Shown one piece after another: positions 59,434-64,000 of a stretch of 64,000 nucleotides of DNA (position 1 is its first letter; each line of letters starts with the position of its first letter). The DNA comes from Escherichia coli (lineage in GTDB: Bacteria; Pseudomonadota; Gammaproteobacteria; Enterobacterales; Enterobacteriaceae): assembly GCF_003334785.1 (NCBI RefSeq), contig NZ_QOWV01000013.1, one strand, 5' to 3'. Under the pieces are notes generated by a model that saw nothing but the letters and a program-made list of their open reading frames with translations, ran no database searches and was not told where the DNA came from. The translations under genes were made by a program, and so were the position numbers.

Positions 59434-60330
59434 TTATACAAAAAGTGACAAAAAAGATCGGGTTTGATCACAGTCAGGGATCCCGGCTCGTCCACCGGGA
59501 CGTGTGCATTTTAACGCCGCTACACCGCTGGCGAAGCGGACTGACTCCGCTAAATCCCCACTTGTTGCCAGCGCCACCGCCAAAGCGCCGTGAAAAACAT
59601 CACCCGCACCTGTGGTATCTACCACATCAACTTTGAAGGCCGGTTGATGCTGACGCCCACCATTTTCCAGCCAGTCGCAGCCTGCGCTACCCTGGGTCAC
59701 ATAGACATGACCATTTGTGAGCGTTTGTGCCTGTTTTAGCGCACTGGCCATCTCTTTCACGCCCGTTAAGCGCGCCAGACCCGGTTCTGAAAAGGCCGCG
59801 TGATCGCTTAATGCCACCAGCTCACTGATATCCTGCGGCGTAATGTCCCCGTCCAGAACGGTCATCACACCCGCCTGACGGGCCAGGGTGAAGGCTTTTT
59901 TAGCGCCGTCGTGCCAGCGTACATCTGCCAGCACAACATCCCACTGAGAGAAATCAATTTCCTCCAACCACTCTGCGTCAGGCAGCAGATCCGGGCTGGG
60001 GTAGTTAATGATTATCCGCTCGCCTTTGGTATCCACCATGATGGCGGATTGCGAAGATTTCGCCTGGTTATACCGTTTGGTGTAACGGGTGTTAACGCCC
60101 CAGGATTCCAGCTCTGCCAGCAGGCTGTTGCCCGTGTCGTCATCACCTACGCGACCAATAAAATCGACCTGCGCCCCCAGCCTTGCCGCCGCAACCGCTG
60201 CCGTCGCCGCTGGCCCGCCACCAACTTCCGTATAATTTCTCGCCACGTATTTACCGCTCTCCGTCGGTAACCCTTCCACGTAATAGATGCGATCCATCAC
60301 GGTTATACCTACACAAGCAACACGAATCAT
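59434..60330 (-). CDS. yihV: 6-deoxy-6-sulfofructose kinase (PfkB/ribokinase family)
   Basis: Track ORF 59434..60336; 298 aa from MIRVACVGITVMDRIYYVEGLPTESGKYVARNY; C-terminal DTTGAGD motif. Confidence 0.9.
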   Translation of the reverse strand: MIRVACVGITVMDRIYYVEGLPTESGKYVARNYTEVGGGPAATAAVAAARLGAQVDFIGRVGDDDTGNSLLAELESWGVNTRYTKRYNQAKSSQSAIMVDTKGERIIINYPSPDLLPDAEWLEEIDFSQWDVVLADVRWHDGAKKAFTLARQAGVMTVLDGDITPQDISELVALSDHAAFSEPGLARLTGVKEMASALKQAQTLTNGHVYVTQGSAGCDWLENGGRQHQPAFKVDVVDTTGAGDVFHGALAVALATSGDLAESVRFASGVAALKCTRPGGRAGIPDCDQTRSFLSLFV

Positions 60331-60497
60331 GGTCATTCCTTAAACATTTTGGGATGCGTTCATTTTAATTTCACCAATTGTTTAAAAAGTGACGGCTGTC
60401 AATTTTTTGACGATAAATTACAAATACGGTCAAAAACAGACAAGTAAAGCATGTCATAAATGACAAAAAGTGACATCACTGTATTCAGGAGAGGGTT

Positions 60498-61301
60498 ATG
60501 GCAGCAATCGCGTTTATCGGTTTAGGACAAATGGGTTCGCCAATGGCGAGCAATTTATTGCAGCAAGGGCATCAACTTCGCGTCTTTGATGTGAACGCCG
60601 AAGCTGTGCGGCATCTGGTAGACAAAGGTGCGACTCCCGCCGCCAACCCGGCGCAGGCCGCTAAAGATGCCGAATTTATCATTACCATGTTGCCGAATGG
60701 CGATCTGGTGCGCAACGTGTTGTTCGGTGAAAACGGCGTTTGCGAAGGCTTATCTACCGATGCGCTGGTCATTGATATGTCCACCATCCATCCGCTGCAA
60801 ACCGATAAATTGATTGCCGATATGCAAGCCAAAGGCTTCAGCATGATGGATGTTCCGGTAGGCCGTACTTCTGCAAATGCCATTACCGGTACTCTGTTAC
60901 TGCTGGCTGGCGGCACCGCTGAACAAGTTGAACGTGCCACACCGATCCTGATGGCGATGGGCAGTGAGTTGATCAACGCTGGCGGTCCGGGCATGGGGAT
61001 CCGCGTTAAGCTCATCAACAACTACATGAGCATCGCGCTCAATGCGCTTTCGGCAGAAGCCGCCGTTTTGTGCGAAGCCCTGAATCTTCCCTTCGATGTT
61101 GCCGTCAAAGTGATGAGCGGTACCGCCGCCGGTAAAGGTCACTTCACCACTTCCTGGCCAAACAAAGTCCTCAGCGGAGATCTTTCTCCCGCCTTCATGA
61201 TCGATCTTGCCCATAAGGATCTTGGCATCGCCCTTGATGTCGCCAACCAGCTGCATGTGCCAATGCCGCTGGGGGCCGCCTCACGGGAGGTTTATAGCTA
61301 G
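60498..61301 (+). CDS. yihU: 3-sulfolactaldehyde reductase YihU (beta-hydroxyacid dehydrogenase family), truncated by an in-frame TAG; frame stays open a further 31 codons to about 61394
   Basis: ORF track 267 codons ending ...AASREVYS then TAG; same-frame continuation [30 protein letters not shown] then TAA; N-terminal Rossmann motif GLGQMG. Confidence 0.85.
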
Positions 61302-61417
61302 GCGCGCGCAGCGGGTCGCGGTCGCCAGGACTGGTCCGCCATTCTGGAACAGGTCCGTGTCAGTGCCGGGATGACTGCCAAAGTAAAAATGTAACGACTG
61401 GATAAAGGAATAAATGA

Positions 61418-62296
61418 ATGAATAAGTACACCATCAACGACATTACGCGCGCATCGGGCGGTTTTGCCATGCTGGCGGTCGATCAGCGCGAAGCCATGCG
61501 CATGATGTTTGCCGCGGCTGGGGCACCCGCTCCGGTAGCCGATAGCGTTTTAACTGATTTCAAAGTTAACGCTGCAAAGGCCCTCTCGCCTTATGCCTCG
61601 GCGATTCTGGTAGATCAACAATTCTGCTACCGCCAGGTGGTTGAGCAAAACGCGATTGCCAAAAGTTGCGCCATGATTGTCGCCGCCGATGAGTTCATTC
61701 CTGGCAACGGTATTCCGGTCGATAGCGTGGTTATTGACCGCAAAATCAATCCGCTACAGATCAAACAAGACGGTGGCAAAGCCTTAAAACTGCTGGTGCT
61801 GTGGCGTAGTGATGAAGATGCGCAGCAACGTCTGGATATGGTGAAAGAGTTCAACGAACTGTGCCACTCACACGGTCTGGTAAGCATCATTGAGCCAGTC
61901 GTCCGCCCACCGCGTCGTGGCGATAAATTCGATCGCGAACAAGCGATCATCGATGCCGCCAAAGAGCTGGGCGACAGTGGCGCTGACCTCTACAAAGTTG
62001 AAATGCCGCTTTATGGCAAAGGTCCGCAACAAGAGCTTCTCTGTGCTTCACAACGTCTGAATGACCATATCAATATGCCATGGGTGATCCTCTCTTCCGG
62101 TGTCGACGAAAAACTGTTCCCGCGTGCCGTACGCGTGGCAATGACGGCGGGCGCATCGGGATTCCTGGCAGGCCGTGCAGTCTGGGCATCGGTCGTCGGT
62201 TTACCAGACAACGAGCTGATGCTGCGTGACGTTTGCGCACCGAAATTACAACAACTTGGCGATATCGTCGACGAAATGATGGCTAAACGCCGCTAA
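61418..62296 (+). CDS. yihT: 6-deoxy-6-sulfofructose-1-phosphate aldolase
   Basis: ORF track 292 aa [45 protein letters not shown]... Confidence 0.92.
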
Positions 62297-62312
62297 GATG
62301 AGGATAAAAGGA

Positions 62313-63554
62313 ATGAAATGGTTTAACACCCTAAGCCACAACCGTTGGCTGGAACAGGAAACCGACCGCATCTTTGATTTTGGTAAAAATTCCGTAGTGC
62401 CGACTGGTTTTGGCTGGTTAGGCAATAAAGGGCAAATCAAAGAAGAGATGGGCACCCATCTGTGGATCACCGCTCGTATGTTGCACGTTTATTCCGTTGC
62501 TGCGGCGATGGGTCGACCTGGCGCTTACTCGTTGGTTGATCACGGTATCAAAGCCATGAACGGCGCACTGCGTGATAAAAAATATGGCGGCTGGTATGCC
62601 TGCGTGAATGACGAGGGCGTGGTGGATGCCTCCAAACAGGGCTATCAACACTTCTTTGCTCTGCTGGGTGCCGCCAGCGCCGTCACAACGGGTCACCCGG
62701 AAGCGCGCAAGCTGCTCGATTACACCATTGAAATTATCGAGAAATATTTCTGGAGCGAAGAAGAGCAGATGTGCCTGGAATCCTGGGACGAAGCCTTCAG
62801 CAAAACCGAAGAGTACCGCGGCGGCAATGCCAATATGCACGCGGTGGAAGCTTTCTTGATTGTTTATGACGTCACTCACGACAAAAAATGGCTGGATCGC
62901 GCGATTCGCGTGGCTTCCGTGATTATCCACGACGTCGCCAGAAATAATCATTATCGCGTTAACGAACACTTCGATACCCAGTGGAATCCGCTGCCGGATT
63001 ACAACAAAGATAACCCGGCGCATCGCTTCCGCGCGTTCGGAGGTACACCAGGCCACTGGATCGAATGGGGCCGTTTAATGCTGCACATCCATGCTGCCCT
63101 GGAAGCCCGTTGCGAACAACCACCAGCATGGCTGCTAGAAGATGCCAAAGGTCTGTTTAACGCCACCGTGCGCGATGCCTGGGCACCCGATGGCGCGGAC
63201 GGGATTGTTTATACCGTTGACTGGGAAGGAAAACCGGTGGTCCGCGAACGTGTACGTTGGCCTATCGTCGAAGCAATGGGTACGGCCTACGCGCTCTACA
63301 CCGTCACTGGCGATCGCCAGTATGAAACCTGGTATCAAACATGGTGGGAGTACTGCATTAAGTACCTGATGGACTATGAAAATGGTTCCTGGTGGCAGGA
63401 GCTGGATGCGGACAATAAGGTCACCACCAAAGTCTGGGACGGCAAACAGGATATTTATCACCTGCTGCATTGCCTGGTGATCCCGCGTATCCCGTTAGCG
63501 CCCGGCATGGCTCCAGCGGTTGCAGCGGGTCTGCTGGATATTAATGCGAAATAA
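62313..63554 (+). CDS. yihS: sulfoquinovose isomerase (AGE/N-acyl-glucosamine epimerase fold)
   Basis: Track ORF 62298..63554; 413 aa from [36 protein letters not shown]. Confidence 0.92.
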
Positions 63555-63574
63555 CTGATCTGAAAATAGGGTGC

Positions 63575-63650
63575 GGGTTTTCCCCTCTCCCTAACCCTCT
63601 CCCCAAAGGGGCGAGGGGACCGTCCGGTGCAGTTTTTGGGTTTGACATCA
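63575..63650. repeat. GC-rich imperfect palindromic intergenic element (not REP type; possibly a box-C/RSA-class repeat) followed by a second hairpin
   Basis: cccctctccctaaccctctccccaaaggggcgaggggaccg and cagcctcacgggaggctg between yihS and yihR; family assignment is a guess. Confidence 0.4.
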
Positions 63651-63681
63651 GCCTCACGGGAGGCTGTATGTCGTTAATTAA

Positions 63682-64000
63682 GGTGCCTTGTATGCAAATC
63701 ACCAATATGCATTGCAGTGGACAGACCGTTTCACTTGCCGCGGGGGATTATCACGCGACCATTGTGACCGTCGGTGCTGGTCTGGCTGAATTAACCTTTC
63801 AGGGTTGTCATTTAGTCATCCCGCACAAACCCGAAGAGATGCCGCTGGCGCATCTGGGTAAAGTGCTTATTCCGTGGCCGAACCGGATCGCCAACGGCTG
63901 TTACCGCTATCAGGGGCAGGAATATCAGTTACCCATTAATGAACATAGTTCAAAAGCCGCTATTCACGGGCTGCTTGCCTGGCGAGACTGGCAAATTAGT
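63682..64000 (+). CDS. yihR: aldose-1-epimerase-family protein (sulfoquinovose mutarotase), 5' part only (gene runs off the window end)
   Basis: ATG at about 63682 translates MQITNMHCSGQTVSLAAGDYHATIVTVGAGLAELTFQGCHLVIPHKPEEMPLAHLGKVLIPWPNR...; no stop in window so absent from track. Confidence 0.8.

Follow-up and report, generated by a model that had tools for sequence, protein, structure and literature searches.

The stretch of DNA analysed here (the window) comprises 64,000 nucleotides of Escherichia coli contig NZ_QOWV01000013.1 (RefSeq assembly GCF_003334785.1), and at its end it carries genes of the yih cluster for the breakdown of sulfoquinovose (SQ), or sulfoglycolysis. Very probably this is the regulator-proximal half of the ‘long’ yih cassette that is canonical in E. 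coli (ompL-yihOPQRSTUVW), which encodes the sulfoglycolytic Embden-Meyerhof-Parnas route (sulfo-EMP), with the sulfolactaldehyde reductase YihU inactivated by an amber codon and with a yihV/yihU spacer that holds back-to-back promoters and half-sites for the repressor CsqR and the regulator CRP. RefSeq and the literature already contain the locus with its enzymes and repressor, and also the pseudogene call for yihU. The genes and the spacer are as follows:

58615-59400, minus strand: csqR (yihW), DeoR-family repressor of the cluster (RefSeq annotation of 100%-identical genomes, WP_000059678.1; NCBIfam DeoR/GlpR matches)
59434-60330, minus strand: yihV, sulfofructose kinase, intact (PDB 7AG6 match; K-12 RefSeq id)
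60331-60497, no strand: divergent regulatory spacer between yihV and yihU, 167 bp, with three single-nucleotide polymorphisms (SNPs) relative to K-12
60498-61394, plus strand: yihU, sulfolactaldehyde reductase, pseudogene (in-frame TAG at 61299-61301; RefSeq note ‘internal stop’)
61418-62296, plus strand: yihT, sulfofructose-1-phosphate aldolase, intact (PDB 7AG1 match; K-12 RefSeq id)
62313-63554, plus strand: yihS, sulfoquinovose isomerase, intact (PDB 2RGK and 7AG4 matches; K-12 RefSeq id)
63692-64000, plus strand: yihR, sulfoquinovose mutarotase, partial, codons 1-103 of 300, cut by the window end (NF011719, RefSeq)

Half of a long yih cassette

The first-pass annotation had described a complete cluster between 59434 and 64000. 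Ten genes make up the cluster as published, ompL and yihO to yihW (PMC8006165); of these the window contains five whole genes and 103 of the 300 codons of yihR, and one gene that had been counted within that interval, csqR, lies outside its start. Nor are yihW and yihV a divergent pair: both are on the minus strand, in tandem, and it is yihV and yihU that diverge, across a spacer of 167 bp rather than the 160 bp given for it. The arrangement expected of yihU-yihT-yihS-yihR does hold, since gene order and orientation throughout the window are those of K-12 MG1655, except that yihR is only partly present.

YihV (residues 1-298) and YihT (residues 1-292) are full-length, near-maximal-score matches to the chains of sulfofructose kinase (PDB 7AG6) and sulfofructosephosphate aldolase (PDB 7AG1); YihS (residues 1-413) matches a chain of PDB 2RGK in the same way and also strongly the sulfoquinovose isomerase of PDB 7AG4. 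YihU with Gln268 restored is 100% identical to the 3-sulfolactaldehyde reductase of PDB 6SM7, and in its truncated form it scores 546.8 bits against NF012005, the NCBIfam equivalog for sulfolactaldehyde 3-reductase, for which the cut-off is 348. Of the 300 positions of NF011719, the NCBIfam aldose-1-epimerase equivalog, the yihR fragment matches 1-103. The sulfoglycolytic identities that had been assigned to the enzymes are thereby supported, and the sulfo-EMP pathway was worked out on these same proteins (PMC8006165). By the steps established in K-12, YihR would interconvert the SQ anomers, YihS would turn SQ into sulfofructose, YihV would phosphorylate sulfofructose, YihT would perform the cleavage to dihydroxyacetone phosphate and sulfolactaldehyde (SLA), and an intact YihU would use NADH to reduce SLA to dihydroxypropanesulfonate, which would then be exported.

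Among 5426 complete E. coli genomes, which served as the collection for all locus and allele counts, 4015 cover at least 80% of a query made of window positions 58500-64000, and several complete chromosomes are 100% identical to it. In genomes identical to the window at the locus, the RefSeq protein ids of csqR, yihV, yihT, yihS and yihR are those of K-12. K-12 MG1655 itself differs from the window at four of these 5501 bases:

60429: G here, A in K-12, yihV/yihU spacer
60445: T here, C in K-12, yihV/yihU spacer
60477: C here, A in K-12, yihV/yihU spacer
61299: T here, C in K-12, yihU codon 268, CAG to TAG

Position 61299 is the sole coding-sequence difference from csqR to the partial yihR, and within the window only yihU carries a lesion, as had been proposed. 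At 60429 and 60445 it is the window that has the derived base. Position 60477, with the GTGACA repeat on one side and the ribosome-binding site of yihU on the other, is the only difference from K-12 not due to the window’s lineage: the window has C in common with E. whittamii and the O103:H2 strain 12009, and the A of K-12 looks derived.

The rest of the cluster was sought in three complete genomes, JKHS016, LR-64-2 and FDAARGOS_1248, which share the TAG allele of yihU and have 0-1 mismatches to the window in 5.5 kb. In all three, yihR-yihQ-yihP-yihO-ompL follow uninterrupted and in K-12 order, and in JKHS016 and LR-64-2 the protein ids of yihQ, yihP, yihO and ompL are those of K-12. The expectation that yihQ, yihP and yihO lie beyond the window is thus borne out in its relatives, with neither the absence nor the rearrangement of these genes that would have spoken against a sulfoglycolytic cluster. 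For the window’s own source, their presence and that of ompL is inferred from these closest relatives, which weighs against calling the cassette complete. JKHS016 differs from the window at two bases in 49500-58499. Over the 25 kb from 39001 to 64000 the best matches are K-12-like strains lacking the TAG and not genomes of the TAG lineage; no genome in the searched collection equals the window, whose source departs from its locus-level relatives further upstream.

Three kinds of known system can be set beside this locus. The K-12 MG1655 yih cluster (Denger 2014, Sharma 2021, Shimada 2019) has the same order, orientation and protein ids for csqR, yihV, yihT, yihS and yihR, and differs from the window in the four bases given above and in being whole rather than half. 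‘Long’ and ‘short’ yih cassettes have been distinguished by Kaznadzey et al. 2025 (PMC12608037), and the short one (yihTUVW type, as in E. coli Nissle 1917 and UTI89; PMC12608037) shares with the window the DeoR regulator, the kinase, the divergent reductase and the aldolase, together with a recognisable central part of the regulatory core, although its spacer is only about 70% identical. In UTI89 it lacks yihS, yihR and yihQ at that place and has alcohol dehydrogenase and major facilitator superfamily genes after the aldolase; in short-cassette strains yihO, yihP, yihQ, yihR and yihS are absent genome-wide, and the short cassette is not induced by SQ (PMC12608037). The cassette in the window is clearly of the long type. 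Among about 58 species of other Enterobacterales (Salmonella, Citrobacter, Enterobacter, Yersinia, Rahnella, Hafnia and others), almost every one has yihV and csqR in tandem and yihU divergent from them; the proteins are 71-97% identical, and the spacer, mostly of 155-200 bp, has the same 81-bp core, whereas its yihU-proximal third has diverged and the G of the window at 60429 is an A in nearly all of them.

The control region between yihV and yihU

CsqR has been found to bind the yihU/yihV spacer of K-12 by genomic systematic evolution of ligands by exponential enrichment (PMC8249747), by electrophoretic mobility shift assay (EMSA) together with atomic force microscopy (PMC8006165) and again by EMSA (PMC12608037); it also binds its own promoter in K-12, with CsqR on yihV/W (PMC12608037). 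Along the spacer DNA it polymerises cooperatively into large complexes (PMC8006165), and SQ, SQ-glycerol and sulforhamnose dissolve the complexes of CsqR with DNA, as published for K-12. The K-12 spacer on which this binding was demonstrated is 98% identical to that of the window. CRP, too, binds the yihU/V spacer and has a site at -41.5 of the yihW promoter, and the mapped transcription starts are -25/-27 for yihV and -15, -25, -35, -62/-63 and -82/-92 for yihU (PMC5816610).

We took the orthologous locus from 58 Enterobacterales species and aligned 55 spacers (the window, K-12 and 53 other species); the conservation profile, expressed as mean majority-base frequency, was made from 54 sequences, the window and the 53 species. 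From Escherichia to Yersinia, Hafnia and Rahnella a core of 81 bp, 60361-60441, is nearly invariant, with a mean frequency of 0.93 as compared with 0.91-0.92 at second and 0.60 at third codon positions of the flanking genes (second positions of yihV and yihU). We interpret this core, from the alignment and the published binding, as overlapping promoters and operators. A search of 58000-64000 against Rfam gave no match, so that no known riboswitch or small RNA accounts for the conserved core. The elements recognised in the spacer, and in the csqR promoter next to it, are:

60362-60367, minus strand: TAAAAT, putative -10 of the yihV promoter, invariant across species; predicted start at about 60355 as against the published -25/-27 (PMC5816610)
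60384-60407, no strand: 24-bp palindrome AAAAAGTGAC-ggct-GTCAATTTTT, candidate CRP and/or CsqR dimer site
60407-60412: third half-site, TTGACG, directly after the palindrome
60425-60430, plus strand: TACGGT here, TACGAT ancestrally, putative -10 of the yihUTS promoter; predicted start at about 60437 as against the published -62/-63, that is 60436/60435 (PMC5816610)
60437-60442: CAGACA, inside or next to the core
60452-60475, plus strand: yihU-proximal repeats, a palindrome TGTCAT-aa-ATGACA and a direct repeat ATGACA-N4-GTGACA with a 10-bp period
59424-59472, minus strand: csqR promoter region, within and just past the 3’ end of yihV, with putative assignments of a CRP-like TGTGA (59468-59472), AAAAAGTGAC (59440-59449, plus strand) and a -10-like TAAAAT (59431-59436)

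Repeated half-sites are concentrated in the spacer, which contains eight TGAC/GTCA cores where about one is expected, the top count of any 167-bp stretch in the 64 kb. The arms of the central palindrome are invariant and its four central bases vary freely between species; an inverted copy of AAAAAGTGAC with one mismatch was also found. Nearer to yihU, the TGACA-N5-TGACA spacing (60460-60475) is retained in most species while the intervening bases vary. In the 64 kb there are three exact copies of the 10-mer AAAAAGTGAC, where 0.15 would be expected, and every copy lies in one of two regions bound by CsqR: two in the yihV/yihU spacer and one in the csqR promoter region (59440-59449), which is itself strongly conserved over 59424-59472 in the 54 sequences. 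Half-sites that exceed chance and are conserved within CsqR-bound regions, with an intact repressor gene close by (csqR, 58615-59400, with the K-12 protein id), are what would be looked for in an operator. The proposal of the first-pass annotation that the spacer contains CsqR operators is therefore well supported by the published K-12 binding, the conserved core and the enriched half-sites, and a search of 60331-60497 for repeats, which it had recommended, turned up the eight cores together with the direct repeat of 10-bp period at 60460-60475.

On this basis, two back-to-back promoters may be pictured whose -10 elements flank the central palindrome, the latter lying some 40.5 bp from each mapped start, and the putative -10 hexamers agree with the mapped starts to within 1-2 nt. 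The phased arrays of TGACA-like half-sites would be the places at which CsqR polymerises and, in part, at which CRP binds. Three points weigh against so detailed a picture. A consensus sigma-70 scan of the spacer returned no sites, leaving the -10 elements to weak hexamers and the published starts; promoters of this non-consensus kind are expected where transcription depends on an activator. When up to two mismatches are allowed, AAAAAGTGAC is not enriched over the 64 kb (66 occurrences, 62 expected), so that only exact copies of the 10-mer, and the way they cluster locally, are informative. Finally, allotting the repeats to CsqR rather than CRP is a candidate assignment, and the palindrome may belong to CRP, to CsqR or to both. 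No YihW motif is given in the main text of the chromatin immunoprecipitation-exonuclease paper. The primary footprinting study of CsqR is that of Shimada 2019.

The array might instead consist mainly of CRP sites and core promoter elements, with the CsqR operators elsewhere, for example in the invariant ATAAATTACAAATACGATCAAAAAC block, and of the alternatives considered here we take this one most seriously, although we think it rather improbable. The central palindrome suits the CRP consensus frame (aGTGA-N6-TCAat) and its distance of about 40.5 bp from both starts is class II-like, CRP binding at yihU/V is published (PMC5816610), and TTGACA-like hexamers resemble -35 elements too. Unpaired half-sites such as those at 59440 and 60465, however, make no CRP site, the yihU-proximal copies read AATGACA in many species and so lack the G that CRP needs, and many phased half-sites are what cooperative polymerisation of CsqR (PMC8006165) would suit. 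The comparison across species allows the yihV/yihU control region to be mapped more sharply, with an invariant 81-bp core, a palindrome equidistant from both starts and phased TGACA half-sites.

The amber codon in yihU

Codon 268 of yihU (61299-61301) has changed from CAG to TAG, which replaces Gln268 by an amber stop and leaves 267 of 298 codons. Thirty-one residues are removed, among them the last 17 of the Pfam domain NAD_binding_11 (residues 165-284 of YihU), so that the truncated protein does not have the complete NAD_binding_2 plus NAD_binding_11 pair of the beta-hydroxyacid dehydrogenase fold. In 54 orthologues, residues 268-290 are as conserved as residues 1-267 (0.881 versus 0.879), the last eight residues are the only variable ones in the lost tail, and the homologues of YihU in the PDB align through residues 275-290. 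Because 31 residues are lost, 23 of which are as conserved as the rest, and a domain is cut, the truncated YihU is likely to be inactive. The intact SLA reductase of a sulfo-EMP cluster is then missing here, yihU being present and interrupted by the TAG. Strong polarity on yihT is not expected, because the stop lies only 96 nt before the natural one.

In this lineage SQ could still be converted as far as SLA, and the reduction of SLA would be blocked. A K-12 ΔyihU strain does not grow on SQ (PMC6278857); with YihU inactive, no growth on SQ is therefore predicted for strains of the lineage, and they may in addition be sensitive to SQ, a phenotype that can be tested.

Several features of the truncated protein weigh against a complete loss of function. 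Its 267 residues retain the whole NAD-binding Rossmann domain (residues 4-160) and the greater part of the C-terminal domain, the sulfonate-binding residues Arg123, Asn174 and Ser178 (PMC8006165) remain, and the score against the sulfolactaldehyde reductase equivalog is far above the cut-off. The lost codon is Gln, exactly what a supE-type (glnV) amber suppressor inserts, and such a suppressor would give back the wild-type residue. The remaining genes of the cluster are intact in most members of the lineage. It could thus be argued that the step is not truly broken, whether through residual activity, through readthrough or suppression of UAG as Gln, or through a substitute SLA reductase or dehydrogenase, and that sulfoglycolysis still works. 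We consider this unlikely. The missing residues 268-290 are conserved like the rest and lie inside the Pfam domain, RefSeq labels yihU a pseudogene, and the failure of K-12 ΔyihU to grow on SQ (PMC6278857) implies that the host has no substitute enzyme; furthermore, a sub-lineage has acquired yihQ T161I, yihP I249N and a SNP in the core of the spacer, as relaxed constraint would give.

The loss of yihU would be irrelevant if the main role of the cassette here were the lactose-linked function that has been suggested for yih genes and not the use of SQ. The yihT, yihS and yihV promoters are indeed lactose-responsive, those of yihU being independent of the carbon source (PMC5816610). The enzymes, however, show high specificity towards sulfonated substrates (PMC8006165), the long cassette of K-12 is induced by SQ in its entirety, with a log2 fold-change of at least 5 (PMC12608037), and the tested proteins do not differ from those of the window, all of which makes a lactose role very improbable. 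An inactive YihU in an SQ cassette is the reading that we keep.

The spread of the allele was measured with allele-specific 30-mers, positioned such that each 28-nt seed includes the SNP: TAG is present in 8 of the 5426 genomes and CAG in 3996. Of the eight, seven belong to a single near-identical lineage, with 0-1 differences in 5.5-5.7 kb, and were taken from human stool or faeces, hospital wastewater or a cloacal swab; the four lineage records opened give Japan, the USA, Mali and Ecuador as countries. The remaining genome is that of strain OkiPb01695 from bovine faeces in Japan (NZ_AP042570.1), whose allele of the whole locus is clearly diverged. An ‘internal stop’ is annotated in all four lineage assemblies inspected and in OkiPb01695. 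The change stands just one base apart from K-12, as a sequencing or assembly error might, but it recurs in eight independent complete assemblies (seven of the lineage and the diverged one) from varied sources, the five opened records spanning Japan (two), the USA, Mali and Ecuador, and error is accordingly rejected as its cause, its probability being close to nil. The yihU stop codon is real, rare, lineage-specific and already annotated.

In OkiPb01695 the TAG at codon 268 is accompanied by a separate nonsense codon in yihV (the Gln in ...VYVTQGSAGC... becomes a stop) and by YihU W218S, and the closest differing sites that flank the TAG correspond to window positions 61156 and 61573. From this comparison, its TAG would be either a recurrent inactivation at codon 268 or a small recombination patch. 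Early ends of the yihU reading frame are also found outside E. coli, where each may be a genuine pseudogene or an assembly error: after 60 codons in Symbiopectobacterium, 142 in Superficieibacter sp. and 266 in Citrobacter amalonaticus AUH_CA_2023_1, the last of which stops beside the E. coli amber position.

Lineage-specific changes around the amber codon

From csqR to ompL, the changes found throughout the lineage are the yihU TAG and two spacer substitutions; beyond these there is one synonymous difference from K-12 in yihQ, whose direction is unpolarised. The first spacer substitution, 60429 A>G, falls in the most conserved 15-bp bin of the profile (0.99 in the 54 sequences), makes TACGGT out of the putative -10 hexamer TACGAT and abolishes a conserved GATC. 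Almost every other species has A there, as do 3908 E. coli genomes with the exact ancestral core 30-mer, which marks G as derived. The second, 60445 C>T, is likewise derived in this lineage, and 60429G and 60445T occur together in just 5 of the 5426 genomes, all of the TAG lineage. Import of these changes by recombination was considered and ruled out: the 30-mer with 60429G and 60445T is found in no other E. coli genome, and other species nearly all have A at 60429.

Two more members of the lineage, FDAARGOS_1248 and strain 200112, add 60427 C>A in the same putative -10 hexamer and the same 0.99 bin. FDAARGOS_1248 also carries the nonsynonymous changes yihQ T161I and yihP I249N, whereas YihQ and YihP of JKHS016 and LR-64-2 are identical to those of K-12. 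The changes in FDAARGOS_1248 look like continuing decay of the cluster after the loss of yihU.

The clustering of mutations is compatible with relaxed constraint after yihU was lost or with selection for silencing, and here we can only speculate. If YihU is missing, induction by SQ would end in a reactive aldehyde, and lower expression of the operon or an earlier block might then be advantageous; that the sulfoglycolysis locus of this clone is undergoing selective shutdown rather than mere drift is a tentative idea, which we regard as doubtful. The nested mutations of the lineage nevertheless provide a small natural experiment on how a niche catabolic pathway decays or is adaptively silenced.

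The joint presence in OkiPb01695 of the yihV nonsense codon and the codon-268 TAG is a possible recurrence that bears on the silencing idea.

One further element of the locus is not part of the pathway and lies in the spacer between yihS and yihR:

63560-63640, no strand: dispersed GC-rich palindromic intergenic repeat (TCCCCTCTCCC ... GGGCGAGGGGA)

It has inverted arms of 11 nt, turns up at 14 places in the median E. coli genome and may resemble the boxC family. The yihS-yihR spacer that holds it measures 137 bp here, compared to 68 bp in OkiPb01695.

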